A stretch of DNA of 64,000 nucleotides from a phage: NCBI GenBank assembly GCA_025823825.1, contig GCA_025823825.1_4720.1. The stretch is one strand, 5' to 3'. This document shows positions 5,893 to 58,833 of the stretch, one piece after another (the first letter of the stretch is position 1; every line of letters starts with the position of its first letter). A program made the translations under genes and the position numbers. Below the pieces are notes generated by a model that was not told the DNA's origin, did not search any database, and was given only the letters and a program-made list of their open reading frames with translations.

Positions 5893-5924
5893 CCTTCCTC
5901 CAACCCAACAGGGAAGGAGGAAGG
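5893..5924. repeat. GC-rich extragenic hairpin element (CCTTCCTCC-N14-GGAGGAAGG)
   Basis: 9-bp perfect stem, loop AACCCAACAGGGAA, flanked by GCCATAA...TTATGC; between co-oriented minus genes. Confidence 0.6.
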
Positions 5925-5934
5925 GATATAGTGG

Positions 5935-7224
5935 TTATGCTTTTTCGGTCGCTGCGTTGAAGTATTTCGCTGCAGCAAATACAGCATCCGCATATTGGCG
6001 TATCGAAGCGCGAAGAATCTTGGTTGACAATACCGTACTTAAACGTGCCATTTCAGAAACCGCGCCTACATAAGGACGGATGGTTTCACGATCGGCTTCA
6101 GGCAGCTTGTCAAGCATGTCGCCCCACTTCGTTTTGATTTTCATACCGTTGAGTTTAGCGGTACGCTCCACAGAACCAGCCAAAGCTTCAACCATGTGGA
6201 AATAAGAGGGGTCGATCGTACGGAACACGTTAAGATAGGAAGTCAACGCACCTTTCAGTTCGTTATCGTCTTTGAAAATGTTTGCGTTCTCTATCTCACC
6301 GGTCACCGTCGTCTCGGCTTCAACCCGAATATTTTTCACCAACGTATAGGCTTTAATCGCGTCACGTTCGTTTTCGACGGCGTCGAGACCTTGAATAACG
6401 AAACGTTTCCCACCACTTTCTGGAAAAACAACTTTATTCAGAGCGGATTTGATAGCCAGCAGGTATTTGTCTAAGATAGACGGAAGCAGAGTTAGGTCGG
6501 TGAGGTCTGCGACCTTTTTATTGATATCGGCTACTTGCTTAAACAATGAATCCATCCCGCTTGCGCTTGCAGCGAGTTGTTCGATATGCTTGCTTGCAAA
6601 CATGGCATTCGCTGATTTCGCATTAGGGAACATATTGACCATATTTTCAGTGGGCTTATCCAGTTGTTTGATATGGCGTTCACCTTTATTCACGGCGGTT
6701 GCGATGCCGACAATTTTGTTGTATGCGACGACCAGGTTCTTGAACAGCATCTGGAGCAGTTTGAACAGTTGTTCAGCGATATTTGCAATGATTACCCAGA
6801 CGGCATATAACGCTTGCGCTGCGCGCTCTTTAAAGCCTTCCAGTACAATAGCTTGCCCTTCCACCAAACGATCGTCAGCTTGGAACATGTCTTCATCAGA
6901 CATCCCCAGGTTTGCTGCTGATGTCGAAGCAATCTGACGGATAAAGGCGACGTCGCTTGCACGTGCTTCAGGGATCGTGGGTGCGATCATATACGCTGTA
7001 TCTTCCAGTGTCGCTGATGTACGCACTGCAATCTCAGCCAGTTCGCTGGATTCATCGATTGCCTCGTCGGTACGTTGAATTACCAACTCAACTTCACCCT
7101 CTTCAATTTCTGCGTTAGGATCGTTCTGCTCCGCCGGAATCGTTGCGAGGAGATCTTCAGCACTCAGTAGAGAGAGTTCGAATGCGTTTTTATTGACGTT
7201 GTCAAAAAGAGAAATGCGGGCCAT
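5935..7224 (-). CDS. hypothetical protein, paralog family member with acidic AxE-rich N-terminus (429 aa)
   Basis: ATG with AAGGA RBS; motif SDVAFIRQIASTSAANLGM...VEGQAIVLEGFKERAAQALYAVW aligns with neighbours. Confidence 0.8.
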   Translation of the reverse strand: MARISLFDNVNKNAFELSLLSAEDLLATIPAEQNDPNAEIEEGEVELVIQRTDEAIDESSELAEIAVRTSATLEDTAYMIAPTIPEARASDVAFIRQIASTSAANLGMSDEDMFQADDRLVEGQAIVLEGFKERAAQALYAVWVIIANIAEQLFKLLQMLFKNLVVAYNKIVGIATAVNKGERHIKQLDKPTENMVNMFPNAKSANAMFASKHIEQLAASASGMDSLFKQVADINKKVADLTDLTLLPSILDKYLLAIKSALNKVVFPESGGKRFVIQGLDAVENERDAIKAYTLVKNIRVEAETTVTGEIENANIFKDDNELKGALTSYLNVFRTIDPSYFHMVEALAGSVERTAKLNGMKIKTKWGDMLDKLPEADRETIRPYVGAVSEMARLSTVLSTKILRASIRQYADAVFAAAKYFNAATEKA

Positions 7225-7233
7225 GTTAGTTCC

Positions 7234-8550
7234 TTAACCTTTGGTATAAGCGTTAACGAGAGTATTGATAAATGAAGTCAGTGCGCGAAGATATTGGTAA
7301 GCGAATTGGTTTTCAATGCGGTTCTCTTTACCACAAAGCAGAATCGCGCGCTTAACGAGCTTAGGATAGATCTCGACATACGGTTGGTAGCTTGCGTCAA
7401 AATTCTGCTCGTTGAAGCGTTTCATGGTGATTTCCTGGATACGCTCCATGGTGCGAATTTTATTGCGAGAGAATATCTCAGAGAAAGCACGTCCGCGTTT
7501 TGTTACCATCAACAAATCTTTCGCGAACGTAAGTTGTCGAACGCTACGCAAATCGTCAGGTGTTGGTAGGACGTACGTTTCTGGATCGTTATCCCATTCA
7601 ACATCTTCAACGACAATATCCAAGTCGAGGTAACGTTTAACAGCATCGATGATATTGTCTTTTGACGCATCGAATTCTTTCAAGAAGACTGCACCGTTGA
7701 CGTAGCGGATGCGTTTCCCGGAAACCGTTGGGGTGATAACATCAGCACCTTCCACGGAACCGCGATTTTCCAGTGTCGATTTGACAGCGTGCAAGAAAGA
7801 CAGATAATCAACAGGAAGTTTTTCAACCTTATCTAAATGGAAGTCGATGATGTTTAACCCTAAACCATCAATAACTGAATAACCGTCCGATTTAAGGAAC
7901 ATCTGATTGAAGGTATCAATGTTGCTTTTCAGCGCGTCTACACCACCAACGTTGTTACGGTTAGGGAAAAGCGTCCGCCACTCCGCTTTAAACGCAACTT
8001 CTTTATTTTCCTCGTATTTGCCTTTGGGCATCTGTTCGAGGGCTGCAACGGCTTTCTGAAAATTACGTGTCTCGTCGTAAACAAGACGGGTAAGCTTCTC
8101 GAAAGCTGCTGCCAGTGTCAGGGCAATATCAACAATGATATCCCAGATCTTTTTCATGGCTTTTACAACGGTGTCCTTAAACCCTTCAACAACCAAAGCT
8201 TCTCCAACTTCAACACGATCGGTTGGAGCTAACAATGTTTCAGAGGGTAGACCCAAAGCAATCGATGCGGATTCTTGAACGTTACGAACCAATGCAACGT
8301 CGCTGTAATTAGCCGATTCGATAGTCGGGGCAACATCAAAACTGATTTCCCGTAATGCTTCAACAGCAGGGAAAGCACGATCAAGTGCATCTTCATGTTC
8401 GTCGATTGTTGCCAAACGTAATTCAACACCGTCCGCGTCGATGACCTCAGCTGTCGGTTCCGCAGCAAGCGCCTCAGCAACAATAGGATATTTTTCAAAC
8501 GCCTCAAGGCTGATATCGCCTTGCGACCCAAATAGCGGTATGTGTACCAT
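7234..8550 (-). CDS. hypothetical protein, paralog family member (438 aa from ATG; track start 8574 is TTG)
   Basis: Internal ATG (MVHIPLF) preceded by GGAGA; motif SDVALVRNVQESASIALGL...VEGFKDTVVKAMKKIW parallels 5935-7224. Confidence 0.75.
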   Translation of the reverse strand: MVHIPLFGSQGDISLEAFEKYPIVAEALAAEPTAEVIDADGVELRLATIDEHEDALDRAFPAVEALREISFDVAPTIESANYSDVALVRNVQESASIALGLPSETLLAPTDRVEVGEALVVEGFKDTVVKAMKKIWDIIVDIALTLAAAFEKLTRLVYDETRNFQKAVAALEQMPKGKYEENKEVAFKAEWRTLFPNRNNVGGVDALKSNIDTFNQMFLKSDGYSVIDGLGLNIIDFHLDKVEKLPVDYLSFLHAVKSTLENRGSVEGADVITPTVSGKRIRYVNGAVFLKEFDASKDNIIDAVKRYLDLDIVVEDVEWDNDPETYVLPTPDDLRSVRQLTFAKDLLMVTKRGRAFSEIFSRNKIRTMERIQEITMKRFNEQNFDASYQPYVEIYPKLVKRAILLCGKENRIENQFAYQYLRALTSFINTLVNAYTKG

Positions 8551-8598
8551 GTGTTGTCTCCAGTAATGATTCAAAAGATAAACCTGAGCGGCATAGAA

Positions 8599-8630
8599 CC
8601 CTCTCCCAACCCGTGAGGGAAGGGAGAGGG
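8599..8630. repeat. GC-rich extragenic hairpin element (CCCTCTCCC-AACCCGTGAGGGAA-GGGAGAGGG)
   Basis: 9-bp stem; loop with inner CCC/GGG pairing around GNRA-type GTGA. Confidence 0.6.
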
Positions 8631-8652
8631 AATATGTCAGTTTATTAACTGA

Positions 8653-9984
8653 TTATTTCTGTTCTGCGTCAGCCGGTTTCTCAGCCGTCTGGCCGCCGTA
8701 CTCTTTCAGCATTTTAGCAACGCCATCCAGAACAGCATTACCTGCCTGAACACCGTACTTCATCAGGCTAACCTGCGGGTTGATGTAGCAAGAACGTGCG
8801 TCTTTCAGTGCAGACAGCACGGTTTTAACACGCTGTTTTTCCTGAGCAGAAACTTCGCCTTTCTTAGACAGTTCAGCTTCCATATCGTCGCCGAATTTAA
8901 CGGCGTCTTTGAAGCCCTGGGATTTCTTACCGATGTTACCTTTCGCAGCCAGCAGTTTATCAGCCAGTGCTTCAACACTGTTGATCACCGCAGCCAACTG
9001 GTTCGGGGACAGTACATCAGCTTCCTGTTCCATCGCGGTGATTGCGTTATTACCGCGTTCCCAGGTAACTTTACCGTCGGTGGTTTTGAATCCCCAACCG
9101 TTCGGACCTTTCACATCAGCGATCGCAGGTGCGTTCAGTTTGTCGGTGTACTCAGTATGTGATTTAGACTTAACGAGTTCAACGAATTTATCCGCACGAT
9201 CGTCAGCCGCCTTCATTGCTTTCTCGAAGGTATCTGCGATTTTGCTTGATGCGCCAGCGATATCGGTATCGCCAATGTAACCGGTAACAGTGGTGCCCAG
9301 TTTAACTTTCGCGTTCTTCGGAGAGCCTTTACGTTTGGCGATCATTTCTTTCAGTTTAGCCGCACGCGCTTTCAGTTTGGTTGCACCGTCGAAGATACGA
9401 TCGATGAACTTCACGAAGTTGTCCCAGGTGGATTTCAGGAAGTTCTTAATTGCGGTCCACAGTTTCTGCCACCATTTTTGTTCTTCCAGGAAGATCATGT
9501 TGGTTGCATCGTAACGGGAAGCGGAACCGCCGAAGCTTTCGAAGGACGGCATGGTTTCCGGCAGTTTGAAACCGATAGTACCACACAGACGTTTCAGATT
9601 ACGCATGTGTTCCTGAGCGGTTTGTGCAGACATACCGCCGTCTTTCAGGTAGCTTTCGGTCGCAACAACGGTTTCCGTCAGTTCATCCATGGCTTCGTCC
9701 ATGGCTTCTGCGGTTTCGTCGTCTTTTGCAATTTCGATAACAACGGCATCAACCTGCTCGATATCACCACGAACTTCGATAGCCAGTTCGGTTTCAGCTG
9801 CGGTATCTTCAGCAATTTCAGCACGTTCGGTCAGTTCAGCGACAACGGTTTCATCCGCTGCTGCAGCATCAGCTGCCGGTTCTGCTTCAACGGTTGCCGC
9901 TGCATCCGGATCGATTTCAGCAGCAAGTTGAACCAGCTGTGCGTTAGATGGATTTGCGACAAGACGATCAAAAATAGAAGGCAT
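8653..9984 (-). CDS. hypothetical protein with very acidic Ala/Glu-rich N-terminal third (443 aa); possible distant member of the same family
   Basis: ATG with AAAGGA RBS; N-terminal 100 aa dominated by A/E/D/T; TAA stop at 8653. Confidence 0.75.
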   Translation of the reverse strand: MPSIFDRLVANPSNAQLVQLAAEIDPDAAATVEAEPAADAAAADETVVAELTERAEIAEDTAAETELAIEVRGDIEQVDAVVIEIAKDDETAEAMDEAMDELTETVVATESYLKDGGMSAQTAQEHMRNLKRLCGTIGFKLPETMPSFESFGGSASRYDATNMIFLEEQKWWQKLWTAIKNFLKSTWDNFVKFIDRIFDGATKLKARAAKLKEMIAKRKGSPKNAKVKLGTTVTGYIGDTDIAGASSKIADTFEKAMKAADDRADKFVELVKSKSHTEYTDKLNAPAIADVKGPNGWGFKTTDGKVTWERGNNAITAMEQEADVLSPNQLAAVINSVEALADKLLAAKGNIGKKSQGFKDAVKFGDDMEAELSKKGEVSAQEKQRVKTVLSALKDARSCYINPQVSLMKYGVQAGNAVLDGVAKMLKEYGGQTAEKPADAEQK

Positions 9985-10049
9985 AATTTTGTTTCCTTTA
10001 CAATAAATTGCACATTAGCTAATGCGGCTTAAGTGAACCGTCAGTTCAC

Positions 10050-10580
10050 TTAAAAGCCCTTAAAACCCGGTGCCATAGGTTGCCCAAACACCGCATTCAA
10101 AGTACATATGATGTCCTGGATACCATTGTCCCAATGGAGCCAAGTACGCACCATCTCTTCGTCTGACAACGCGATATAACTCATAAGTTTACCGCTGCTT
10201 TCCAGACGTTGGTGTGAACTTAACGATTGACGATCTGACCAGTTATCAATCAGTTGTCCAGCAATCTGAACGTTTGTGTCTCGTCTACCCGTGTGAATGA
10301 ATCGTAGCGTATCACGGATAAACTCCAGACTGGTGAAGTTCAGATTTGGGTTATGGCTGTTCATTTCCACCCAATCGGTGATGGGGTACATCAAACGATA
10401 AAGGGTAGAAAGAACCTGACGCTCATATTTCCAATCATCGAGAGGAGTACCGTCGACCAAACGCTGATACAAACTAACAACGTCACGATCGTAGTTCTCC
10501 TGGCGTTTTACGCCGTTAACCGGAAATCCAAAGAACCCGGTACCGTATAACGTTAAAGGGACGTCACGAAGTGCACTCAT
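10050..10580 (-). CDS. hypothetical protein (176 aa from internal ATG)
   Basis: Track start 10712 is TTG and would overlap upstream gene by 136 nt; internal ATG at 10580 forms an ATGA overlap with the stop of 10577-11479. Confidence 0.6.
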   Translation of the reverse strand: MSALRDVPLTLYGTGFFGFPVNGVKRQENYDRDVVSLYQRLVDGTPLDDWKYERQVLSTLYRLMYPITDWVEMNSHNPNLNFTSLEFIRDTLRFIHTGRRDTNVQIAGQLIDNWSDRQSLSSHQRLESSGKLMSYIALSDEEMVRTWLHWDNGIQDIICTLNAVFGQPMAPGFKGF

Positions 10581-11479
10581 ACAGCCGCCTCTTCTTTTCG
10601 TTTGATGTCGTAACGAAGTTTCTTCAGCCTGTCTTCGTGATATTCGATCTGCTGCTGGATTTTTGGATCGTTGCCCGCATTCTGTTGCTTTTGCTTCAGT
10701 GACAAAATCCAATACTCCAGCGCTTGGGCTTCTTCTTTGGCTGCTTGTAATGATGCTTCTTCACGTTCGCTGCGCCAGATACGGAAACGGTAAACAAGCG
10801 TGTCGGTTACATCGCCGTTAGCCCACGAACCCATACGCATCGGGTCAGTATTACCCGCATTGTACAATCCGTTACCAACACCGTCTTCATCAGAAACCAC
10901 GACATCCGGGATTTTATCCAATCCAGCAAGGATCTGTTGTTTCTGTCCACATAGCACCTCGGTGGCAACGGCGAAACCGTACATATTGGCGGTCAGGTAA
11001 GCAATCTCGTTTTTGGTGAAGAACTCACCAAGTGCTTTATCACCACCCGGCATGCTTTCGCAGATGACCGTCGCACGAAGCAGCGTACGAGCGTAGCTAA
11101 CGTAGAAGCCCAGAGACTCAACAAGACGTACCAGAGCGGCTTCTTTGAAACTCAGACCGTCAGCAGCAACATCGATTTCCAGGTTTTTGTTAACGCGTTT
11201 AACAATTTCTGGAATCAGATCAACAGCATTACGTAGCGCTAAGTGAACGTTTTCTACCCAGCTTCCAGAGCGAACGCGGGTTAAACGCTGGTGCAGATCC
11301 TTATCAGCAAGTTTCCATAGGGCGCTTTCACCCTTTTGGAGAAGCGAAGCGGATGTCTCGTAGTAAGGAATCGCGGTGTTGTTGATTTCGTCACGGATTG
11401 ATTCGAGTGCGTCAGCAACACCTGTGCGTTTAAAAAGCGGCTTCAAACCGCGAATGAATTCTTTAAAATCAATTGCCAT
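10577..11479 (-). CDS. hypothetical protein (300 aa)
   Basis: ATG with AGGTG upstream; no recognisable motif. Confidence 0.75.
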   Translation of the reverse strand: MAIDFKEFIRGLKPLFKRTGVADALESIRDEINNTAIPYYETSASLLQKGESALWKLADKDLHQRLTRVRSGSWVENVHLALRNAVDLIPEIVKRVNKNLEIDVAADGLSFKEAALVRLVESLGFYVSYARTLLRATVICESMPGGDKALGEFFTKNEIAYLTANMYGFAVATEVLCGQKQQILAGLDKIPDVVVSDEDGVGNGLYNAGNTDPMRMGSWANGDVTDTLVYRFRIWRSEREEASLQAAKEEAQALEYWILSLKQKQQNAGNDPKIQQQIEYHEDRLKKLRYDIKRKEEAAV

Positions 11480-11518
11480 GAGTGAGCACCTATGCTATTT
11501 CGAAACAGGTTGCGAGTG

Positions 11519-12625
11519 TTAACGAATCTGTGGGACGTTTCCGGTACGGAGCGCCTGGAGGATCGTCAGGAGATCGGAACCCGAGGTTGACGAACTGTTG
11601 GATTTTTCCAGTTGCTTGAAGCTTACGGTGGTCCCTTGATCCAAGCTGTGGAAATAGAAGGTCACCATCTCTTCAGCTTCGTCGATGATGATCAACTGCA
11701 TTGCGAGGGCTTCAGCCATGACTTTCTGACGTGTGTTATAGTCAGATAAACGACGTCCGATCTTACGCTCGATGGCTTCCTGGTTAGCCTTAGAGATGAT
11801 ATAGGTGGAGGCGATTGCTCCAGAAGAAGGGATCTTTGTGCTCGCTGCAGCTTTTGCGGCATTGATGCGCGCAGCATTAACAGCCTTGCGGATACCCTCT
11901 TTATCCATACGTGAGATTCGTTTATGCTCACGAACCAGATCGCTAAGCAGGATCATATCGCTCCAGAAAGACAGCTCACCAGCCATCATGCGATGCCAAC
12001 GTGCTCGCCAGGTGTTCTGTGGGCCACCGATCGCTAAAATCGCTGCAAGCACTTCCGCCGGTGAACTCGCGATACGCATGCTGATGTTCAATGGCATTTT
12101 CATCGTTGCCTGACCATCGGTCAGCGTCACGGTTAAGAACTTGCCGGTGACCGCGTTCGCATCTTTGTTCAGCAATTCGATCGCTGCGTCGCTGGCTCCA
12201 ACATCGGTGCTATTTTTTTGTTTCCCCAGCAGGTTGAATCCTTTGTCATCAAGGAAAACAAGGCTTTTGCTATCCGCACTTTCCAGTGCTAATTTGACAG
12301 CCTTATCCATCAGATTAGCGTTACGATTTGGGTTCACACGACCCAGCGTTTTATCGACACTGATATTACCCACCTGCATGATGGTGTTCAACGCCAGTAA
12401 ATAGAACCCGGTATACATGTTTTCAGCGGTGCGCATGCAGTTGCCTAACGCATTGCGTGCGTCGCTATAATACAACTCACGTTCAAAGATCAGCGGTGCG
12501 ATAACGCGTGAAGGTTGTGAGAGTTCAACCAGCGAACCTGGCTGGATAAGTTTATTAACTTCGTAGACTTTAGCGATACCGGACGCAACAACGTTAACAG
12601 CGTCGGCAATTTCTGATGCTACCAT
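11519..12625 (-). CDS. hypothetical protein (368 aa)
   Basis: ATG with AAGGA RBS; start is only about 34 nt from the divergently oriented start at 12660. Confidence 0.75.
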   Translation of the reverse strand: MVASEIADAVNVVASGIAKVYEVNKLIQPGSLVELSQPSRVIAPLIFERELYYSDARNALGNCMRTAENMYTGFYLLALNTIMQVGNISVDKTLGRVNPNRNANLMDKAVKLALESADSKSLVFLDDKGFNLLGKQKNSTDVGASDAAIELLNKDANAVTGKFLTVTLTDGQATMKMPLNISMRIASSPAEVLAAILAIGGPQNTWRARWHRMMAGELSFWSDMILLSDLVREHKRISRMDKEGIRKAVNAARINAAKAAASTKIPSSGAIASTYIISKANQEAIERKIGRRLSDYNTRQKVMAEALAMQLIIIDEAEEMVTFYFHSLDQGTTVSFKQLEKSNSSSTSGSDLLTILQALRTGNVPQIR

Positions 12626-12659
12626 ATTGAAATCCTTATTTACAAATAAAGGAAAGAAA

Positions 12660-13865
12660 ATGTCTAATTACTACGACCAAGCTATTCAAACCATTCAGGA
12701 GAATAATGCGTCGTTAACACCCGAAGCTGTGGAGGCAGCGGGCAATGCGGTGTTATTCACTGATTCGGATTGGGCAATAGCGCGGAAGAATATTCGTACC
12801 AGTGTCGGTCAAGGGACATACGAGGACAGTATCGCCAGACGGTATCGGAATGTGTCACCTATTCCAGGGAACAGCCCGATTCCGATTAACCGCGATCATG
12901 CCGGTATTACCTTCTTTACACGACCTAATTTACATCTTACCGACGCGAACTTAAAACGAGATCGACGTTTGTGGTCGTTACGCACGGATAACCCTAACAG
13001 TATTCAGGCTGTTGTCCGCGACTACTTGGACCCTGTGGGTGCCAGAAAGCGGAACCATCGAGGACGTGCCATCGTCGATGAGCGCAATCCATTCATAAGT
13101 ATACTGACGGACAACCTGACGGATATCAGCGGTTTCAATGACATGGAAATGCAGGTCTATCAGGGCAAACCGGGATTACGCCAAGAAACCGTTGTGATGG
13201 CTGACGGTTCAGTGGATATGTTTCAACCCTATAACCTGAACGCGACGTTCAAGAACATCATGGGTAACCCCATCATGTTCCTTCATTATATTTGGTTGAT
13301 TTACATCGCTGGTGTGCATAATGGCGAACTGACGCCAAGCCCTCAGGCCATCATTGATAATGAGATGGATTACTGGACAAGATGTTATCGTATCATCTTG
13401 GATCCGACTGGGATGTATGTTCGTTATATCTTCGCACCGACCGCGATGTTTCCTGTCGGACTACCGATTGGTAATATGGCCAACTACAGCATCGATAAAC
13501 CCTTCACGCAAGATAACGAACGTATCACTATTCCATACCAAGCGGTTGGTAACAACGCATTTGATGAGATTCTGAAGGATGAATTCAATCGACTTGTCCT
13601 GATGTTCTATTACGGTGAGAACGATACCCGTACGTTCCTTGAAGATGAGGAGTTGGTACCTATCTCACCCTACGAGCGTCGAATCATGTCGTATCGTGTC
13701 GATATGTATCCATTTATTCATCCGTTGACCTCAGAGCTTCTTTGGTTCGTACCCGCTGATGATTACAACGAATTCTATCTGGATCTTGAGCCGTCGGCGT
13801 TACCACCGGATACGTTCAGTCGCGATCTTGTCCGTACCACCATTCCGCAAAATTACGAGGGATAA
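12660..13865 (+). CDS. hypothetical protein (401 aa from ATG; track start 12627 is TTG)
   Basis: ATG preceded by AAAGGAAAG; first gene of a two-gene plus-strand island. Confidence 0.75.
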   Translation: MSNYYDQAIQTIQENNASLTPEAVEAAGNAVLFTDSDWAIARKNIRTSVGQGTYEDSIARRYRNVSPIPGNSPIPINRDHAGITFFTRPNLHLTDANLKRDRRLWSLRTDNPNSIQAVVRDYLDPVGARKRNHRGRAIVDERNPFISILTDNLTDISGFNDMEMQVYQGKPGLRQETVVMADGSVDMFQPYNLNATFKNIMGNPIMFLHYIWLIYIAGVHNGELTPSPQAIIDNEMDYWTRCYRIILDPTGMYVRYIFAPTAMFPVGLPIGNMANYSIDKPFTQDNERITIPYQAVGNNAFDEILKDEFNRLVLMFYYGENDTRTFLEDEELVPISPYERRIMSYRVDMYPFIHPLTSELLWFVPADDYNEFYLDLEPSALPPDTFSRDLVRTTIPQNYEG

Positions 13866-13868
13866 TAA

Positions 13869-16862: not shown

Positions 16863-16883
16863 AACAAAATAGCGTGAGCATAA

Positions 16884-26892: not shown

Positions 26893-27186
26893 TTAAAAGA
26901 TATCAAGCCATGAGGATGGAGGAACCAGTTCGCTGGTAAAGTAATCGCCACTGATACCACTATCATCAAAGTGACGTTCGTTGTAACACTGGACGAGCTT
27001 ACCTCCACGTTCTTTCTGATACCATCCAAGGATACTATTAAGACCTCTGTCCACGCATTCGAATGCTTGAGTAATAACATCCTCAACGACGGAGGCTGCC
27101 GTGGGACCATTGAATAGACGATCTAAGCGCTTTTTCATCGATTTGGTTTTCTCGTTCATGATTTCTTTTCCTGTTATAATCGGCAT
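26893..27186 (-). CDS. small hypothetical protein (97 aa)
   Basis: ATG start; RBS candidates inside adjacent hairpin arm (GGAAGGG) or internal AGGAAAAG before a second ATG. Confidence 0.55.
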   Translation of the reverse strand: MPIITGKEIMNEKTKSMKKRLDRLFNGPTAASVVEDVITQAFECVDRGLNSILGWYQKERGGKLVQCYNERHFDDSGISGDYFTSELVPPSSWLDIF

Positions 27187-27190
27187 ACAA

Positions 27191-27222
27191 CCCTTCCCCG
27201 GCCTTGACGGCTAGGGAAGGGG
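27191..27222. repeat. GC-rich extragenic hairpin element, degenerate copy (CCCTTCCCC...GGGAAGGGG)
   Basis: Imperfect stem, flanked by GGCATACAA...CTATGC. Confidence 0.45.
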
Positions 27223-27235
27223 CTATGCTACGTTG

Positions 27236-42305: not shown

Positions 42306-43022
42306 TTAAATTGAAGTTAGATATTGTTTACCTCCAACAAACGACGTTAACCAATTACCTGAAACAAGTTGCGATGCCCAGCCAGGCACTGCCCTACCGT
42401 TCTGGCTCATCACGTTACCTGCCCATCCCGGAAAACCCGGTCGGAAAATATATACTTGAATATGTGTTAAAGCGTTATCATTACCACTGCCAACAGCAAC
42501 GTTACGACTCCCAGATGACGGGAAATATTCTTTTAAGAACAGAGGATCGGTTGCTAATAAAGATGCGGGCCAAGGGTTCGCGGATGCATCAACATCGAAT
42601 TCGGTCCATCGCCATTTACGTCCCGTGTCGAACCATGTCGATGTACCACCACCCCTCACGGCAAGATTGCGCGCATCACGGACATTATAAATTGATTCGA
42701 TGTTACGCCATCCACCTTTTGCAGCGTTTGCTGCATAGCAAACCGCATTACCACCATTCTTCTTCTCGTAAACGGTTCGTTTGATATGAACACGGTCGAT
42801 GAACGCTTCACCGTATTTGTTGACGAGCGTTTGTGCGATATCACGAAGATCGTGCATGTGAAAAGCGATGTCTTCGTTATGGAACCATGTTGTCTGGTTC
42901 CAGACGGTACCGTTTGGTTCGGCACACATCGATCGGATATTGTTGCGTTGATTAATCGCGATAAAACCCATTGTATACCTCGTTCCTATTCTCAAAAAGG
43001 AAATTTCATACGATGACGCCAT
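42306..43022 (-). CDS. hypothetical protein (238 aa from internal ATG), paralog of 41553-42194
   Basis: Internal ATG (MASSYEISF); the upstream residues of the track ORF are a translated hairpin element whose arm GGAGGAGC serves as SD. Confidence 0.7.
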   Translation of the reverse strand: MASSYEISFLRIGTRYTMGFIAINQRNNIRSMCAEPNGTVWNQTTWFHNEDIAFHMHDLRDIAQTLVNKYGEAFIDRVHIKRTVYEKKNGGNAVCYAANAAKGGWRNIESIYNVRDARNLAVRGGGTSTWFDTGRKWRWTEFDVDASANPWPASLLATDPLFLKEYFPSSGSRNVAVGSGNDNALTHIQVYIFRPGFPGWAGNVMSQNGRAVPGWASQLVSGNWLTSFVGGKQYLTSI

Positions 43023-43026
43023 AGCA

Positions 43027-43056
43027 GCTCCTCCTTCCCTTACGGGTTGGAGGAGC
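43027..43056. repeat. GC-rich hairpin element whose arm provides the SD of 42306-43022
   Basis: Minus-strand reading GCTCCTCC-AACCCGTAAGGGAA-GGAGGAGC-TGCT-ATG. Confidence 0.6.
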
Positions 43057-43064
43057 ATACTTAA

Positions 43065-43571
43065 TTACTCGCTGATAACCTCAACGGAATTGGGATCAGC
43101 GATCATCGCACGGTCAGTAGAACAATTGAAGAAGACCATGCCGACACCATCGCCGTTCGAGTTCAGGGTTGAACTTACGTAAGACAGGGTTGGTTTATTC
43201 ATGCGGTAGAAGCGTTCGCTGGTAGCGGTATTGAACCCCAGATCAACGTAGTCTTTCACCGTGGTATACAACTGTGTGGATTCGAAAACGGTTACCGGAG
43301 AGTCGACGGTAAACTGACTACCTTCATCCACAACCAGAACTTTATCGTTCCAGATTTCAGTGGTTGAAAACTTCGGTTTCCAATGTTCGAATTCCTGGGT
43401 TGCTCCCCAGCAGGAATACACAGCGAGATTGCTGTTCTTCTCAACCGGTTTCAATCCCACCAGTTGTGTCAGGTCTTTATCCAGGTTCGGTAAGCCTTCC
43501 AGCGTAGCGCACCCACCCAGAGAAAGTACCATCAACATACCAAGAATAATCGCGCAGAGTTTCTTCATCAT
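43065..43571 (-). CDS. putative lipoprotein (168 aa)
   Basis: Signal peptide MMKKLCAIILGMLMVLSLGGC with lipobox-like LGGC. Confidence 0.7.
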   Translation of the reverse strand: MMKKLCAIILGMLMVLSLGGCATLEGLPNLDKDLTQLVGLKPVEKNSNLAVYSCWGATQEFEHWKPKFSTTEIWNDKVLVVDEGSQFTVDSPVTVFESTQLYTTVKDYVDLGFNTATSERFYRMNKPTLSYVSSTLNSNGDGVGMVFFNCSTDRAMIADPNSVEVISE

Positions 43572-47952: not shown

Positions 47953-47975
47953 ATGCGCACCCTCCTCCAATAATC

Positions 47976-48020: not shown

Positions 48021-48107
48021 AAACGTAAACAGTCTTAACGACCGCATAAAATTCCGCGCATATTACCCCCCCCCCTCGACGAAGCGAGGTAGAGGAGGAT
48101 AACACGA

Positions 48108-50063: not shown

Positions 50064-50118
50064 AATAAAAAAAAGAAAAATAGGAAAACGGTGTTCATCC
50101 TTTTAGGGATGAACACCG
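50064..50118 (-). terminator. rho-independent terminator downstream of 50139-50717
   Basis: Perfect 12-bp stem CGGTGTTCATCC/GGATGAACACCG with 6-nt loop, followed on the minus strand by a long U-rich tract. Confidence 0.75.
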
Positions 50119-50138
50119 CGTACCGTTATGTTGAATGC

Positions 50139-51463: not shown

Positions 51464-51638
51464 TTTCCATTCCTCAAACAAATGTGTGTCTTTTACGCGA
51501 CATGATTACTAGTACACAGGTTACTGGATTTCTGTAAAAGTTAATTTTCGTAAACTAAAAGAAAATGTATCCGTGTTTCCTGGTTCTTCCCCTCCACAGC
51601 CTCAGGAAGAGAAGAACCGTTTACTAAGTTGTTATGTA

Positions 51639-51896
51639 TTAAAATGCATTGATTGGATTGTTCAGCGCTTTATCGCGAATTTGAATCGCTGCCAGCATTG
51701 CTTTCTGATACGAATCGTAAGCATCAACAGAAACCGTCATATCAACCAATTTCTCTAATACGGATTCAGCCGCTTTTACGCGGATGCGGAACTTGGTGAT
51801 GACGTTATCTTTGTTACGGTAAACCGTGATGTGGTGCAGCGGCTGGACATTGGTTTTATTCGTTTTAACGGATTTAGTTGCTTTGATCGTTTTCAT
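51639..51896 (-). CDS. small basic hypothetical protein (85 aa)
   Basis: ATG with AAGGAAA RBS. Confidence 0.6.
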   Translation of the reverse strand: MKTIKATKSVKTNKTNVQPLHHITVYRNKDNVITKFRIRVKAAESVLEKLVDMTVSVDAYDSYQKAMLAAIQIRDKALNNPINAF

Positions 51897-51950
51897 GATG
51901 ATTTCCTTCTTTATTAGGATGATTACGTTTAGTCAGTTTAACGGCATAAA

Positions 51951-51975
51951 CCCTTCCTGCCTTACGCAGGAAGGG
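51951..51975. repeat. GC-rich intergenic hairpin (CCCTTCCTGC-CTTAC-GCAGGAAGGG)
   Basis: 10-bp stem, flanked by CGGCATAAA, between 51639-51896 and 51990-52487. Confidence 0.5.
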
Positions 51976-51989
51976 CATACGGATTTGTT

Positions 51990-52487
51990 TTACGTGTGTC
52001 GTCGTTTACCAAAGAAAATGTGGCTGTCTACCACGGTGATATTGGTAGCATGTTTTCTGAAATGCTTAGGGCGAAGATGTTTCGCGTTAAAGAATACGGC
52101 TCCTCGTGTTGGGTCGGCTTTATGGTAAGCCGCAATGTCAGTATAACGTAATGTTGCGACCTCTCGTGCTATTGCTCTTGCTCGCTCAAAAGCAGCATGA
52201 TCGCGTATGACAATACGCCTTTGTTTTGTCCAGGGGAATTGACCTCTCTGCAGTACGACGTCTTTGACGTTCGTAGGGAATCGGTAGTCCATAGATCGAT
52301 TATGTATTAAAAACGCAACGGAGTATTGCCCTTTTACAGATTCGCCTCTGGCTTCCATATACACAGCGCATGCGACGATCTCTTTCCGGCAATCGATTCT
52401 AGGTCCTGCGTTCACCGATGCTTGACTGAACGGTGTGATAAGCAACATAACAAGCCCTAAAATCAACGTGTGTAAAATACCTTGCAT
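51990..52487 (-). CDS. SleB-type cell wall hydrolase (Hydrolase_2 family) with N-terminal signal peptide; endolysin candidate (165 aa)
   Basis: CAVYMEARGESVKGQYSVAFLIHNRS...VLQRGQFPW matches the SleB signature; N-terminal hydrophobic signal LILGLVMLLITPFSQASVNA; ATG with GAGGT RBS. Confidence 0.75.
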   Translation of the reverse strand: MQGILHTLILGLVMLLITPFSQASVNAGPRIDCRKEIVACAVYMEARGESVKGQYSVAFLIHNRSMDYRFPTNVKDVVLQRGQFPWTKQRRIVIRDHAAFERARAIAREVATLRYTDIAAYHKADPTRGAVFFNAKHLRPKHFRKHATNITVVDSHIFFGKRRHT

Positions 52488-52740
52488 CTTAATAACCTCA
52501 CGATAAGGTGCTGTCCACTGGCGTCTTGATAACGCATCCCGTCTATCGGGTTGTTCTATTCAGCGGGCAGCAGGTTAGCGTCAGATGTTTGCCCGACATC
52601 CACGACAGAAATAAACGGTACTGAAAATACGGTCTCCTCTGGTTTGGCAATAAACATAACGTTGGATAACAGAACCCATTTCCCGCATCCAACGCGGTAA
52701 AGGTGTACATCGTTTGAATTCATATAGTTTCTCAAAGATG

Positions 52741-53052
52741 TTAACCTCTACCGTCAAGCCATAGGTTGTATTTATCCCGAAGGTATGGATCACGATAAAT
52801 ACGTCGATAGACTTGATACGGTATAAACTTGCAATGTACGAGTTCGTCGCTTAATTTATGACGTCGCTCCATACCGTTGTGAATACGACGTATCTCCCGG
52901 ATATTAAAGGTTGTTTTATTCAAGAGAATAGACATAATGACGGATCGATGATCCAGATTAAAGATCGCCATTACGCCTCGTATCTCGCGTAAAACAACTT
53001 CTCTATCGACAAGGATGCGATTATTTAACTTAAGATTCTCCGTGATACCCAT
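52741..53052 (-). CDS. hypothetical protein (start uncertain)
   Basis: Track start is GTG and overlaps upstream gene; internal ATGs at 53061/53052; competes with overlapping ORF 52581-52793. Confidence 0.35.
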   Translation of the reverse strand: MGITENLKLNNRILVDREVVLREIRGVMAIFNLDHRSVIMSILLNKTTFNIREIRRIHNGMERRHKLSDELVHCKFIPYQVYRRIYRDPYLRDKYNLWLDGRG

Positions 53053-53401
53053 AACCTTCATCCTCGACACGTCGACACATCGGTAAAAATAAACACCAGC
53101 TTGTTGCACTGAGGATCGCCGTTACGATGATATTTGCGATATCACTCAATCGAGCATCGGCTTGCCACATAACAAGCATAAAAAGAACGTACGCGAACCC
53201 ATACACGACAAACCGTCTGATGTTACGCGTCGACCACGTACAAATATACAAAAGGGGAAGTTGTCCTATAACACAAACGATGGTTCGGATAACGTAATAA
53301 ACGCGTTCCGTCGTTGTTTCAAAATCGATATTCGCTGCAGAAATCCCGATCATTATAAAAGTGAAAATGAAATAGATTTTTGCGTATGTCTTTAAACTCA
53401 T
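53030..53401 (-). CDS. hypothetical integral membrane protein (123 aa), about 4 predicted TM helices
   Basis: Hydrophobic segments IYFIFTFIMIGISAA, VIRTIVCVIGQLPLLYI, FVVYGFAYVLFMLVMW, IIVTAILSATSWCLFL. Confidence 0.6.
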   Translation of the reverse strand: MSLKTYAKIYFIFTFIMIGISAANIDFETTTERVYYVIRTIVCVIGQLPLLYICTWSTRNIRRFVVYGFAYVLFMLVMWQADARLSDIANIIVTAILSATSWCLFLPMCRRVEDEGYGYHGES

Positions 53402-53417
53402 GGCTTTTCTCGTTCGT

Positions 53418-53612
53418 TTATTTGCGTTTTCCTACATTCCTCAACAAGGTAACGATAACGAATACCGCTATCATCAAGAAGACGAACCATAACCCTACGT
53501 TAATTCGGGCGGCTGGTACATCCACCATAAGGAACATCGTCCCACAAAAACCAATTACCATCCATGCTAAGACCATCCCTGTTAATCCCCGTAGTAGCAT
53601 ATGTCCCATCAT
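53418..53612 (-). CDS. holin-like small membrane protein (about 64 aa) with tandem start codons
   Basis: AAGGAG then ATG ATG (MMGHM); two TM segments and basic C-terminal tail RNVGKRK; track start 53651 is TTG. Confidence 0.5.
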   Translation of the reverse strand: MMGHMLLRGLTGMVLAWMVIGFCGTMFLMVDVPAARINVGLWFVFLMIAVFVIVTLLRNVGKRK

Positions 53613-53785
53613 GAACTCCTTCTTACTTTTTCTGATAGAGCGATGATTCAAATTTTAGAAACACCGCTAACGCGAGTGCGATTAATAACGCACGTACCCA
53701 CATACCTCCTTGACAACTGTTGTACAACATAAAGACCAGAGCGATGCCGCCCATATGCAGGCGGCACTTATCGAACAGTGTTGGT

Positions 53786-53995
53786 TTATACATAAGAGAT
53801 CAATCGTTGAGTGATTTTTACTTTGCCTTTACCTGGGCCTTTCTTACAGCGATTCAACAGACGGATACGAGTTCGGGTTACGACGTCGCCATCATAATCA
53901 GCCTGGAACTGTGATAAGAAAGCAGGTTGTATCGGATCGACACCAGGATTGCTATAGAAAGGATTGAGACTTAAAAGAGGGTTAGCTGGAATCAT
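53786..53995 (-). CDS. small hypothetical protein (69 aa)
   Basis: ATG with AAGGA 7 nt upstream. Confidence 0.45.
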   Translation of the reverse strand: MIPANPLLSLNPFYSNPGVDPIQPAFLSQFQADYDGDVVTRTRIRLLNRCKKGPGKGKVKITQRLISYV

Positions 53996-54013
53996 CGTAT
54001 TGTCCTTACTCAG

Positions 54014-54364
54014 TTATTTACCCAGATAGAGGTATTCACCACCCTGAACAACACCGGTTGCTGGATCAACAAGTATACGAACCCGCGCGTAGGTCTTGAA
54101 AGAGGGGTTGAAAACTTCGAAGTCCGCCACTTTCAATTTCACGCTGGGGTTGATTGGGTTCTTAACACCAGGAAGTTCTTTCGGGGTACCGAAGTCAACA
54201 CCGCATTCTTCAAGGTCTGCTGGCGTCATGCTCTCCATGGCCATGTAGATTGTTTTTGCTTTATCGTAAACTTCCGGGCTATCCAGCAATCCCGCCTGCG
54301 CCGAACCGATAACACTACCGAACAGAATAGCAACAGCAACAAACAATTTAGTTAACGTTTTCAT
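54014..54364 (-). CDS. secreted hypothetical protein (116 aa)
   Basis: Signal peptide MKTLTKLFVAVAILFGSVIGSAQA; ATG with AAGGAAA RBS. Confidence 0.65.
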   Translation of the reverse strand: MKTLTKLFVAVAILFGSVIGSAQAGLLDSPEVYDKAKTIYMAMESMTPADLEECGVDFGTPKELPGVKNPINPSVKLKVADFEVFNPSFKTYARVRILVDPATGVVQGGEYLYLGK

Positions 54365-54402
54365 GATCGTTTCCTTAATAACTTAAATAAACCAATTTAG
54401 TA

Positions 54403-54825
54403 TTAACGTACAGCCGCTACGCTGCGAGCGCATGCCTGAATATCATCGGTGTTTACGATGATGGTTTCGTTAAACGCACGAATACGTGCGCGACGTGCTT
54501 CTTTAAGGCTGGCGATTGCGCTAGCAGCTTGATCTGTATTCGCAAGGCTAATAACCGGGATCAAACGCATGTCAGGACTGCAGATATTCAATGCTTGGTA
54601 CACACGTCCATTGATTCCCACGGTATCAGACATCGGATAGTGCGCACGGCATTGAAATTGACCCATGACAACAAGCGAACGATCGGAGATACCAATCTGA
54701 TAACGGCCGTCTTCGCTGTAGGCGTAGCAGTTATTCCCACGAGCCATCCAGTTAGCCTGTGCTTGTGTGCTAACAAAAGCCAGGGTGGTGACGATAGCGA
54801 ATACGATATTTTTGAACAGTTTCAT
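54403..54825 (-). CDS. secreted hypothetical protein (140 aa from internal ATG)
   Basis: Internal ATG gives signal peptide MKLFKNIVFAIVTTLAFVSTQAQA; AAGGA 8 nt upstream. Confidence 0.6.
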   Translation of the reverse strand: MKLFKNIVFAIVTTLAFVSTQAQANWMARGNNCYAYSEDGRYQIGISDRSLVVMGQFQCRAHYPMSDTVGINGRVYQALNICSPDMRLIPVISLANTDQAASAIASLKEARRARIRAFNETIIVNTDDIQACARSVAAVR

Positions 54826-54883
54826 GATAAAGATCCTTATTGAAATAAAATCGGTATAAAGGCCCCCATTTAGGGGGACCTGA

Positions 54884-55201
54884 TTAGTTTGCACGTAAGA
54901 AATGACCCAGAACCGTTACGATTGGAAACAGCCCTGTAACAGTATTATCACCCGAAAACATCATCATTGTTCCGTTAACGGTGATGAAACGGATGTCGGT
55001 TGCGGACCCATCGATAGCGACAAAACGCATCGAGTTCGGTGGAAGGTCCTCAACCACTTCCACGAGGTACTCGCGATTATCAAAGGCTTCTTTAACACGA
55101 CGCATGAAACGAATCAAGGTTCCTTCCGCGTCAGCTTCCAAATGACCTAAGATATCGCGATTATTACGAATAGCAAATACAGCCATTTTAAACATACTCA
55201 T
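54884..55201 (-). CDS. hypothetical protein (105 aa)
   Basis: ATG with AAAGGA RBS. Confidence 0.6.
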   Translation of the reverse strand: MSMFKMAVFAIRNNRDILGHLEADAEGTLIRFMRRVKEAFDNREYLVEVVEDLPPNSMRFVAIDGSATDIRFITVNGTMMMFSGDNTVTGLFPIVTVLGHFLRAN

Positions 55202-57398: not shown

Positions 57399-57442
57399 TT
57401 AAAGCCCTCTTTATCTTTTTCCATTTCTCTTTACATAACCAC

Positions 57443-58114
57443 TTAAGACGTTGCCATCTTATCTTCCAGAGACTTCTTCGGTAAACCATGGATAACTCCT
57501 TCCGGGGTTAAGAACACACAGTCTGGATTCTGCGTTCGTGAACGGTCGTCTGGACTGTTCAACGAAAACAGCAATGCAGAAATACCTTTTGTCCGATTTA
57601 ACGTTGCGACGATCACATCAAGCTGTCGTAGCGCATCCGATACCGTTCGATGAGGAACGATTCGCGACTGTTTGAAGCTGGCTAACCGCCAAGTCTCGAA
57701 CAAACAACGCAGTTTAAACACGTCGGACGGAATAGCTGTAGATCCCTGTTCGATAACCTCAACCCGATCAGCTTCAGGATAACCTACAGCAACCGCACTA
57801 AAGTGTCTTACCCCATTATGAAAATCATCGATAGACGCTTCAGCGTATTTACATACCGTACCAGAAACGACCATCACTTTTGCTAAACCGCGATAATTGA
57901 TCGTTAACGGAATACGAAATACGCGTAAAGCATGTTCCGGATTTAATGAGACGTCATTCACTTTCGCAGATACCAGCGCACCTCGTTCATATCGAGCTTT
58001 GAACGGCAGCCCATTATAAACGGGATTGATCACAACGCCCCCTGGGGAGGCGTTAGCGTTAAGATGAGTGTTAAGCCAATCGGATACTTCCTGTCTGCTG
58101 GTTACGATTAACAT
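57443..58114 (-). CDS. hypothetical protein (224 aa from internal ATG)
   Basis: Internal ATG (MLIVTSRQ) has GGAGGA with 7-nt spacing; alternatives at 58129 and 58147. Confidence 0.6.
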   Translation of the reverse strand: MLIVTSRQEVSDWLNTHLNANASPGGVVINPVYNGLPFKARYERGALVSAKVNDVSLNPEHALRVFRIPLTINYRGLAKVMVVSGTVCKYAEASIDDFHNGVRHFSAVAVGYPEADRVEVIEQGSTAIPSDVFKLRCLFETWRLASFKQSRIVPHRTVSDALRQLDVIVATLNRTKGISALLFSLNSPDDRSRTQNPDCVFLTPEGVIHGLPKKSLEDKMATS

Positions 58115-58139
58115 AAAACGGTCCTCCATTTCTTTTCCT

Positions 58140-58790
58140 TCATTCATGACGCATATCTTCCAAATCATCCTTTTGTTTTGTAAATTCTGATTGCTTGCGA
58201 TAAACCGCCCATGCGTCGTATATACCGTTAAAAGTCAAATGACGCGCATTTAAGTTCACGGTGAATTCTTCCACAGAGGCAAAATCCGAACGAAGCATCG
58301 AATGGAAGGTGTCATCTCCAGTGCAGCCTCCGTACCCTTCGCCCTGATAAACCAAAAGCTGGTGGGGTTGGATACGTGCGGCAACCAACGCCGCTTGTGA
58401 TTCGTGGTAAGGTGGCCACGACAGTAGAATAACGTCGTACTGTGAAAGATCGATGTTTGTGTAGTCCGCTTGCTGGATATCATCAATAAACGGATGGGGG
58501 TGTATTGCGATGTCGTACGCGGTAATATCCTCAACACCAAGTTTACGTAACACGTAAGTCAGGTAACCTGTCCCACAACCCAAGTCAGCGATGCGTCGCC
58601 CGTAACAGATGTTCGCTAACTGGAGCGCGGTATCCATGGTTAACAACGACCATCCAACATGCTGGGTATATTCTTCACGGACAATCCATTGTTGATGGTG
58701 CGTCATCGGTTCTAAGATAGCAGCAAGCTGCTGGTACGGCAACGGCATTTTGGTTTCGCCTTGCGTGAGTAATGCAATAACATCGTTCAT
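58140..58790 (-). CDS. class I SAM-dependent methyltransferase (217 aa from internal ATG), possible amino-methyltransferase
   Basis: Motif I IADLGCGTGYL, acidic AYDI after it, then DVILLSWPPYHE resembling the xPPY catalytic motif; internal ATG with AAAGGA RBS; the track N-terminal extension is a translated intergenic hairpin. Confidence 0.65.
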   Translation of the reverse strand: MNDVIALLTQGETKMPLPYQQLAAILEPMTHHQQWIVREEYTQHVGWSLLTMDTALQLANICYGRRIADLGCGTGYLTYVLRKLGVEDITAYDIAIHPHPFIDDIQQADYTNIDLSQYDVILLSWPPYHESQAALVAARIQPHQLLVYQGEGYGGCTGDDTFHSMLRSDFASVEEFTVNLNARHLTFNGIYDAWAVYRKQSEFTKQKDDLEDMRHE

Positions 58791-58814
58791 TCTGTTTCCT
58801 TTTATCGGCATAAG

Positions 58815-58833
58815 CCCTCCCATGCCGGGAGGG
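58815..58833. repeat. GC-rich intergenic hairpin (CCCTCCC-ATGCC-GGGAGGG)
   Basis: 7-bp stem flanked by CGGCATAAG, between 58839-59267 and the methyltransferase start. Confidence 0.45.

Follow-up and report, generated by a model that had tools for sequence, protein, structure and literature searches.

The 64,000-nucleotide (nt) stretch of phage DNA analysed here (contig GCA_025823825.1_4720.1 of NCBI GenBank assembly GCA_025823825.1; hereafter the window) carries, in many of the gaps between its genes, GC-rich hairpins with a pyrimidine-rich 5' arm and a purine-rich 3' arm (Y/R hairpins), and the question raised by these elements is whether they are a mobile extragenic repeat, a control site in RNA, or a signal that punctuates transcription. 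An initial annotation, made from the sequence alone, had described them as a family of palindromes present in both orientations and had likened them to repetitive extragenic palindromic (REP) sequences and miniature inverted-repeat transposable elements (MITEs) rather than to plain terminators. The analysis described here points instead to transcription terminators at the gene ends of a nucleus-forming jumbo phage of the Goslar type, bidirectional where genes converge, a reading to which a probability of roughly 0.8 is assigned.

When window positions 5000-20000 were compared by megablast with 50,697 phage records, the sole match was Escherichia phage vB_EcoM_Goslar (95% identity, 99% query coverage), a 237-kilobase (kb) nucleus-forming jumbo phage of the Chimalliviridae; window position 1 corresponds to approximately Goslar position 55117, and the window is mostly colinear with Goslar. 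Genes for RNA polymerase beta-like subunits are annotated in the Goslar record, and by that annotation together with the 95% identity the window phage is classed as a chimallivirus-type genome that would possess its own multisubunit RNA polymerases. Matches to sigma70-like promoters in window 1-20000 number 13, about half of the 25.9 +/- 4.5 found in shuffles, a depletion that is expected if the phage transcribes its genes without the host polymerase. Four related genomes were compared: the window, Goslar (with the exception of 50001-54999), and two Goslar-like IMG/VR genomes designated X (IMGVR_UViG_3300011560_000001) and Y (IMGVR_UViG_3300045988_173921). The covariance model used, R1, rests on 21 distinct copies of the nested hairpin form described below, from the Goslar lineage only. 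Goslar loci were identified by the model and by manual inspection and were placed by the record's own annotation, with junction totals that are approximate, being counted from annotation tables; the intergenic fraction of the window, 6.15%, was taken from a curated gene map.

GC-rich perfect Y/R stems of at least 7 base pairs (bp) have 22 placements in the window, compared with 0.33 in dinucleotide shuffles, and the covariance model finds ten window loci at E<0.06 (beginning at 5884, 8590, 16875, 27180, 31182, 31683, 37885, 43016, 51941 and 58805), every one of them intergenic, for which the chance probability is about 8e-13. The nested form, [CATA]-CCCTCCTCC-AA-CCC-GNRA-GGG-AA-GGAGGAGGG-[TATG], occurs in five window gaps. 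These contain the 14-nt loop that had been reported as shared by five copies: the loop pattern AACCCGTRAGGGAA occurs four times (8608 and 16893 on the plus strand, 37903 and 43035 on the minus strand), where shuffles predict 0.66 and none of 100 shuffles reaches four, and the fifth loop, at 5893, is the diverged AACCCAACAGGGAA, as described. The 9-bp stem attributed to the family is, by regular-expression search, a perfect Y/R inverted repeat at 5893, 8599, 16884 and 37894, but has only 8 bp at 43027, and the statement that at least ten intergenic gaps carry the element holds when variants are admitted, but not for the nested form. The variants comprise Y/R hairpins with other loops at 26383, 27191, ~31190, ~31700, 51951 and 58815, as well as looser examples at ~48066-48100 and ~54861-54880 (Table 1). 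A scan of the whole window on both strands returned no Rfam family at or above the gathering score.

Predicted folding energies range from -25 to -34 kcal/mol, with z from -4.2 to -6.7, on both strands; for the nested copies the energies are -27 to -34 kcal/mol. From the outside inwards, the predicted RNA fold comprises a CAUA/UAUG helix formed by the inverted flanks (G)CATA(A)...(T)TATG(C) that had been noticed earlier, a 1x2 loop, the 9-bp Y/R stem, a 2x2 loop of A.A or U.U mismatches, and a CCC/GGG helix around a tetraloop, the last of which had also been anticipated and is recovered in the folds. Across the 21 copies in the model, double compensatory changes occur in 7 of the 9 outer-stem pairs, 98.8% of cells form pairs, and G.U or single-sided intermediates are absent, which fits a need for folding on both strands; the covarying pairs exchange C-G for U-A and so keep the pyrimidine on the 5' side and the purine on the 3' side. 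The apex CC-AA-CCC-NNNA-GGG-AA-GG is invariant in the same copies, and the stem "alleles" are few (CCCTCCTCC, CCCTCTCCC, CCTTCCTCC and CATCCTCCC). A second nested apex, CGGCCTTGACGGCTA, is common to four putative terminator hairpins with differing outer stems, at window 27191-27221 and Goslar 11177, 84357 and 200216, so that the nested design has more than one apex "allele". The hairpin at 48060..48106 folds on the minus strand only, because G.U pairs are used in it.

The position of the hairpins is tied to the ends of genes. The distance to the upstream stop codon in the window is 5, 8, 8, 9, 10, 14, 14, 16, 17, 18, 21, 22, 49 or 125 nt (median about 14), the distance to the next start codon is 48-122 nt, and all three of the convergent junctions (16884, 26383 and 37894) are occupied. 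Goslar has about 31 loci, which occupy ~16 of ~20 convergent junctions compared with 15 of ~205 co-directional ones (Fisher's p ~1e-12). A linear tail, (T)TTATGCYGTT, begins 0-5 nt past the stem on strands with incoming transcription; TATG is present no more than 10 nt past the stem on 37 of the 47 such strands at Goslar loci, compared with 4 of the 15 strands without incoming transcription (p=4e-4). Window tails that fit the pattern TTAT(K)YYGT include TTTATGCCGTT, CTTTATGCCGTT, TTCTATGCCGCT, TTGTATGCCGAT, CTTATGCCGAT, TTATGCTCAC and CTTATGCTGTT; examples on the minus strand are GGTTTATGCCGTTAAAC (51951), GGCTTTATGCCGTTGAA (~31700), GGTTCTATGCCGCTC (8599), GGTTGTATGCCGATT (27191) and GGCTTATGCCGATAA (58815), and at convergent sites the tail is found on both strands. 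Five of the eight minus-strand TATGCCG sites in the window stand directly after such a hairpin, and the upstream CATA is usually absent at co-directional sites; the inverted flanks CATAA...TTATG can be explained by the need of a bidirectional element for the linear tail on both strands. Four minus-strand genes (at 5934, 27235, 31852 and 48107) end in GCATAA, with the stop codon lying inside this hairpin-flank motif. A strong hairpin at window 19736-19760, between two minus-strand genes, has the reversed polarity, with the purine arm first (AGGGGAAGG-loop-CCTTCCCCT), and was rejected as a family member on account of this polarity and its lack of a TTATG tail.

The same combination of hairpin and tail has been mapped at transcript ends in two Pseudomonas phages. 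In phiKZ, 3'-end mapping produced a conserved motif from 61 terminators, 5'-BCCYCCCCHWWDGGGRRGGBYTTATKYYGT-3' (Putzeys et al. 2024, PMC10914365), which resembles the window elements in its GC hairpin of the Y/R type, its TTAT(G)YYGT tail, its intergenic position after genes and its bidirectionality at convergent genes. A phiKZ hairpin has one stem of 7-9 bp, closed by a loop of 4-5 nt (TTCG, CTAG, ATTGC), whereas in the window form a 9-bp stem leads through a 2x2 internal loop (A.A/U.U) to a conserved CCC-GNRA-GGG apex, and an outer CAUA/UAUG helix is often added. A hairpin scan of the first 50 kb of phiKZ located seven Y/R hairpins after genes, and model R1 matches at least ten phiKZ hairpin loci in 50 kb, with E from 1e-6 to 2e-2, at the same loci as the hairpin scan. 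At one convergent phiKZ junction the sequence reads "ttaacagcataa GCCCTCCC ATTGC GGGAGGGC attatg", and its flank AACAGCATAA is also found beside window 37894, as GCATAACAGCATAAGCCCTCC.

In 201phi2-1, a closely similar motif A (n=59) has been reported, eight terminators have been validated in vivo, and combined motifs with elongated stems terminate better (PMC11512511), an effect that parallels the elongated three-helix form in the window. Five of the 201phi2-1 terminators were mapped by cappable sequencing on the Oxford Nanopore Technologies platform (ONT-cappable-seq) and tested in vivo (PMC11512511). Each of the five published coordinates marks a hairpin followed by TTTATGC[C]GTT, where the bracket marks the mapped 3' end; the ends lie 7-8 nt past the stem and 1-2 nt after the G of TATG, so that the TATG motif is there transcribed as part of the terminator tail. 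The 15-nt tail of site 229201 ("GCCAGCC TTCG GGTTGGC TTTATGC[C]GTTAAAC") is identical to that of window 51951 (TTTATGCCGTTAAAC), and the tail of the window hairpin at 54852..54881, TTTATACCG, matches that of the 201phi2-1 terminator at 230027 (TTTATACCGCC). The 201phi2-1 motifs A and A/B thus have the hairpin and TTTATGCCGTT tail of the window elements, but several of their stems are not strictly Y/R (GCCAGCC, GCCTGAGC), they have no nested GNRA apex, and termination, which is experimental there, is deduced for the window by comparison.

Taken together, the comparisons with phiKZ, with 201phi2-1 and through model R1 place the window elements in the same functional family and indicate that their TATG is likewise a transcribed tail; the Goslar record, moreover, labels the ortholog of window 37894 "putative transcriptional terminator". 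The motif is not uniform across all chimalliviruses, since the first 50 kb of SPN3US contain mostly U-run terminators and only some Y/R stems.

In the mechanism proposed here, the functional unit would consist of the GC-rich Y/R hairpin and, behind it on the strand being transcribed, the tail (T)TTATGCYGTT; nascent RNA would fold into the hairpin, and the transcript would end a few nt into the tail. In the Goslar lineage the hairpin would be built from three coaxial helices, namely the outer CAUA/UAUG helix, the 9-bp Y/R stem and, past tandem A.A (or U.U) mismatches, the CCC-GNRA-GGG apex. Copies that have CATA on one side and TATG on the other would work both ways, the stem being an inverted repeat of Watson-Crick pairs, and this is the form found at convergent gene ends; in all likelihood the elements act unidirectionally after co-directional genes and bidirectionally between convergent genes. 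The anatomy of the elements, their distribution and the identity of their motif with experimentally mapped terminators are direct observations of the present work; termination at these sites in this phage, and the polymerase that would respond to them, we infer.

Bacterial intrinsic terminators resemble the family in having a GC-rich hairpin just after the gene, an end 7-8 nt past the stem, and palindromic versions that serve convergent genes, but the family has no U-run, and its tail is instead a specific sequence. The family tails have 3-5 T in their first 8 nt, broken by A, G or C, and the elements were therefore rejected as canonical Rho-independent terminators. A scan of window 1-20000 for canonical T-run terminators (at least 5 T in 8, beginning 0-2 nt after the stem) returned 20, compared with 20.9 in shuffles, and none was a family hairpin; given this lack of enrichment, the Y/R hairpins are the only strong gene-end structures in that region. 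U-run terminators do occur elsewhere in the window, at 30595-30612 (GGTGGGG-TTCG-CCCCACC followed by T12) and at ~50075-50120 (a 13-bp hairpin followed by a T-rich run). Their coexistence with the hairpins that carry the TTATG tail implies that the phage has two terminator types, which possibly serve different polymerases or expression phases.

Several points weigh against the identification of the elements as terminators. A tail without a U-run does not guarantee canonical intrinsic termination, and the tail contains TATG, which is the consensus of phiKZ late promoters and of their start sites. On the evidence of mapped 3' ends alone, termination is indistinguishable from processing or from a stalled exonuclease. 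The Goslar locus at 142878 is in a divergent junction, without obvious incoming transcription, and the conservation of the apex is so strict that termination alone would not need it. A literature search for transcript 3'-end data on this phage or Goslar found none, and descriptions of Goslar terminators or promoters, sought in papers on RNA sequencing, enhanced crosslinking and immunoprecipitation, and structure, were likewise not found.

The presence of TATG in the tail is the basis for the first alternative to be considered, a stop-start module in which the hairpin would end the upstream transcript and the TATG 0-5 nt beyond it would serve the non-virion RNA polymerase as late promoter and start site (G = +1), restarting transcription for the next gene. 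Late promoters of phiKZ are defined by TATG as their sole consensus, with the G as the start site, and the hairpin has a TATG behind it at all 15 co-directional Goslar sites compared with about 22 of 32 strands at convergent sites, an imbalance that makes a second function possible and so tells against simple termination. In some short gaps (e.g. window 8551-8598, 51897-51950 and 31640-31691) this is the sole TATG, it often stands 35-55 nt from the start codon, and, of the phiKZ hairpins in the first 50 kb, the two that belong to the gp1-gp23 block have TTATT after them and the five further along have TTATG. On the other hand, most convergent junctions have TATG on both strands, and any initiation there would give antisense RNA only; the 201phi2-1 transcripts extend past the G; start sites at these positions were not found in the literature searched; and the published sequence of p119L (PMC7618050), the late promoter studied in most detail, shows no hairpin upstream, on which ground the hairpin was also rejected as a general element of phiKZ late promoters. 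The stop-start module is accordingly considered unlikely. If it were nevertheless correct, the signal would have a parallel in those at the gene junctions of non-segmented negative-strand RNA viruses, promoter specificity beyond the 4-bp consensus could come in part from the GC-rich palindrome, and the invertible conserved apex would be a lineage-specific addition that stabilizes the structure on both strands. A separate arrangement is found in the divergent junction at window 24361-24581, which has overlapping opposed TATG motifs (minus strand TTTCTATGAATGCCGTT, plus strand TTGCTATGCAACGG) and no hairpin; TTGCTATG in this gap equals the sequence at the p119L start site of phiKZ, and the motifs are candidate divergent late promoters.

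A second alternative is that the hairpins protect or process the 3' ends of RNA, so that an exonuclease barrier or a cleavage site, rather than release of the polymerase, would set the ends of the mRNAs. Structures of the stability calculated above, placed at gene ends, would suit such a role, as would the GNRA apex and the U.U/A.A mismatches, which are typical of structured RNA, and the mapped 3' ends fit trimming back to the hairpin as well as they fit termination. What makes this explanation quite improbable is that the 201phi2-1 homologs stopped transcription between two reporter genes in vivo (PMC11512511), that the 201phi2-1 ends lie beyond the stem, as in intrinsic termination, and are not flush with it, and that a block to an exonuclease needs no conserved linear tail.

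The evidence on a mobile repeat comes from the distribution of the copies in the Goslar lineage. Goslar contains 16 nested copies, and a blastn search of all the phage records with a 71-nt element matched Goslar only, in 13 places. A scan of IMG/VR for the exact apex found Goslar itself, X, Y and seven singleton matches in other contigs, which amount to five distinct hairpins and have different stems; their number is near that of chance for an 18-mer, yet each match extends into a hairpin. In contigs L006-L010 and L033 the apex CC-AA-CCC-GTRA-GGG-AA-GG tips hairpins with quite different outer stems, that of L007 being followed by a T-rich tail, and hairpins in general may favour this apex as a stable tip. 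When the literature was searched for the apex sequence, the only matches were to unrelated primers and aptamers.

With orthology mapped by flanks to Goslar, 22 orthologous comparisons were obtained, and in five of these, between genomes that are about 95% identical, the 14-nt apex is inverted while its flanks are unchanged: at Goslar 4160, 48118 and 174278 in Y, at 63726 in X, and at 93456 (window 37894) in the window. Three of the inversions are exact reverse complements and two have one extra substitution. The occurrence of the element in both orientations, as initially reported, is therefore real for the apex but limited to it, since the flanks stay in place. Four of the five inversions affect convergent junctions, and there a flip does no more than transfer the GNRA version from one transcript to the other; both versions occur in RNA at co-directional sites, so the orientation of the apex looks neutral, which in turn argues against strand-specific recognition of the apex RNA by a protein. 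Inversions of hairpin loops are known as small inversions at chloroplast hairpins and as the terminal flip/flop of parvoviruses. The likeness to these is that the apex, enclosed by perfect 9-bp inverted arms, has opposite orientations at one and the same site in closely related genomes; the differences are that the setting here is a putative phage terminator and that the mechanism is deduced only, the simplest candidate being recombination or template switching across the perfect inverted arms. At site 93456, three different stem/loop combinations are present in the four genomes, and gene conversion among copies probably contributes to their uniformity. The nested, conserved, lineage-specific apex and its flip-flop between close relatives are the new features of the present work.

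A selfish or mobile REP/MITE-like repeat that spreads through intergenic DNA with no dedicated function would agree with the near-invariant apex and the few stem "alleles", with the replacement of the whole element between genomes at one orthologous site (which suggests gene conversion), and with an extra nested copy in Y that has no Goslar ortholog (L032:3454). The near flanks of this copy are like those of the copy at Goslar site 49787 and its wider flanks are unmatched in the Goslar sequence compared; it may have arisen by duplication or may belong to novel DNA. The window elements are also, like REP sequences, bacterial interspersed mosaic elements and MITEs, multi-copy, intergenic and imperfectly palindromic. 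They differ from such repeats in that the copies in relatives stand at Goslar-orthologous sites in 21 of the 22 cases, in that their placement is bound tightly to stop codons and convergent junctions, and in that their tail is strand-specific for transcription and common to very distant phages with weakly similar proteins; moreover, no direct repeats or target-site duplications flanking the copies, and no association with a transposase, were seen. The proposal of a mobile repeat rather than plain terminators was rejected on these grounds, and a selfish role is very improbable.

The purine arm and the tail together imitate a translation start, the GGAGG of the arm being followed by the ATG of TATG, and the suggestion in the initial annotation that this produces spurious open reading frames (ORFs) and N-terminal extensions is borne out in most instances, including the mini-ORF at 16874-17104 and the read-through peptide LLQPVREGG. 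Most of the ORFs opened in this way in the window are very short, such as MPLN* (51951), MPLRFIF* (8599) and an ORF of 17 codons (~31700). ORF 42306-43022 (minus strand, 238 amino acids (aa)) opens at the ATG in the CTGCTATGG tail of the 43016..43067 hairpin; it is not present in Goslar, lies inside an indel of ~725 nt beside the 43027 hairpin, and is a diverged tandem paralog of the gp87-like gene at 41553-42194 (35% identity, E 3e-35). The alignment of the two paralogs begins only at residue 21, which argues against the ATG in TATG as the true start, and M18, with its own purine-rich site upstream, is better placed. In the gp111-like gene, a start 7 codons downstream, AAAGGAAACAGAATG, has a phage-typical ribosome-binding site of the AAGGAAA type. 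Translational control, in which the hairpin, as an attenuator or riboregulator of the next gene, would sequester in its GGAGG arm the Shine-Dalgarno sequence of the ATG 3-7 nt beyond that arm, can draw on the perfection of that sequence and on the annotation of Goslar gp47, gp111, gp167 and gp183 from such ATGs, but is extremely improbable, because most of these ATGs open ORFs of 4-17 codons or out of frame, because before long ORFs the paralog alignment or an AAGGAAA site favours a downstream start, because the same ATG is present on strands that face the 3' end of a convergent gene, and because the phiKZ position is K (G or T) and hence not always ATG.

Table 1. Hairpin elements of the window, with predicted folding energies
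Position	Strand	Type	Sequence features	Gene context	Fold and score
5884..5934	minus	nested hairpin, putative terminator	plus strand CCTTCCTCC-AA-CCC-AACA-GGG-AA-GGAGGAAGG; minus RNA is the UU/UU version; tail TTTTATGGC	between two minus-strand genes; upstream stop 10 nt, next start 107 nt	-27.1 kcal/mol, z -4.6; 59.3 bits
8590..8640	minus	nested hairpin, putative terminator	stem CCCTCTCCC; GTGA apex on plus strand; minus tail TTCTATGCCGCT	between two minus-strand genes	-27.8 kcal/mol, z -5.0; 63.7 bits
16875..16925	both	nested hairpin, candidate bidirectional terminator	TATGC on both strands	convergent junction (plus gene ends 16862, minus gene 16925)	-32.0 and -33.1 kcal/mol on the two strands; 70.8 bits
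26383..26414	both	variant hairpin	CCCCTCCC ... GGGAGGGG, inner GGAA-looped helix; flanks GCATGCG/GCATAAAA	convergent junction	-33.1 and -39.8 kcal/mol, z ~-5
27180..27231	minus	variant, second apex type	CCCTTCCC-CGGCCTTGACGGCTA-GGGAAGGG; minus tail TTGTATGCCGAT		-29.1 kcal/mol, z -4.5; 20.2 bits
31182..31241	minus	imperfect Y/R hairpin	CCCTCTTCCC-A-CCGTCCT...; tail TTTCTATGCTGTT		-28.4 kcal/mol, z -3.9; 14.9 bits
31683..31735	minus	Y/R hairpin	CTCTTCCCGCCC ... GGGCAGGGAAGGG; tail CTTTATGCCGTT		-32.9 kcal/mol, z -5.5; 17.6 bits
37885..37935	both	nested hairpin	extended palindrome GCATAACAGCATAAG ... CTTATGCTGTTATGC; apex inverted relative to Goslar, X and Y	convergent junction	-32.2/-34.2 kcal/mol
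43016..43067	minus	nested hairpin, 8-bp stem	RNA is the AA/GUAA version; tail CTGCTATGG	between two minus-strand genes	-27.4 kcal/mol; 61 bits
48060..48106	minus	probable member	UAUCCUCCUCU..CCUCG...CGAGGGGGGGGGGUA; tail ATATGCGCGG		-27.1 kcal/mol, z -3.6
51941..51983	minus	simple Y/R hairpin	CCCTTCCTGC-GTAAG-GCAGGAAGGG; tail TTTATGCCGTTAAAC		-25.3 kcal/mol, z -5.6
54852..54881	minus	short GC hairpin	GGTCCCCC-TAAAT-GGGGGCC; tail TTTATACCG		weak fold, -14.8 kcal/mol, z -2.2
58805..58842	minus	simple phiKZ-like hairpin	CCCTCCC-GGCAT-GGGAGGG; tail CTTATGCCGAT		15.1 bits

Some further differences between the window and Goslar were observed. A DNA-polymerase-like ORF (583 aa) at window 24582-26333 is unbroken, while in Goslar (compare 79690-82469) the homologous gene is split (gp68) and is followed by a gene for a NUMOD1/HNH endonuclease (gp69), and the homology between the two genomes is interrupted at window 26074-28883. 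The most diverged part of the window is the tail-fibre region (window 43608-50036, Goslar 98466-108073), with 78-89% identity and gaps; the hairpin gaps at 43027 and ~48066-48100 lie at or near the edges of its diverged blocks.

The hairpins can be used in annotation to mark the ends of transcription units in Goslar-like phages, and they also show how gene callers that reward GGAGG followed by ATG are misled into mini-ORFs and N-terminal extensions, by which several annotated Goslar starts may be affected. The combination of the hairpin with TTATGCYGTT is conserved from the Pseudomonas phages phiKZ and 201phi2-1 to a phage of E. coli with weakly similar proteins, and this conservation across distant phages suggests that the termination signal has co-evolved with the unusual multisubunit RNA polymerases of the family. 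The overlap of the tail with TATG, finally, bears on how the non-virion polymerase finds its promoters by a motif of 4 bp.

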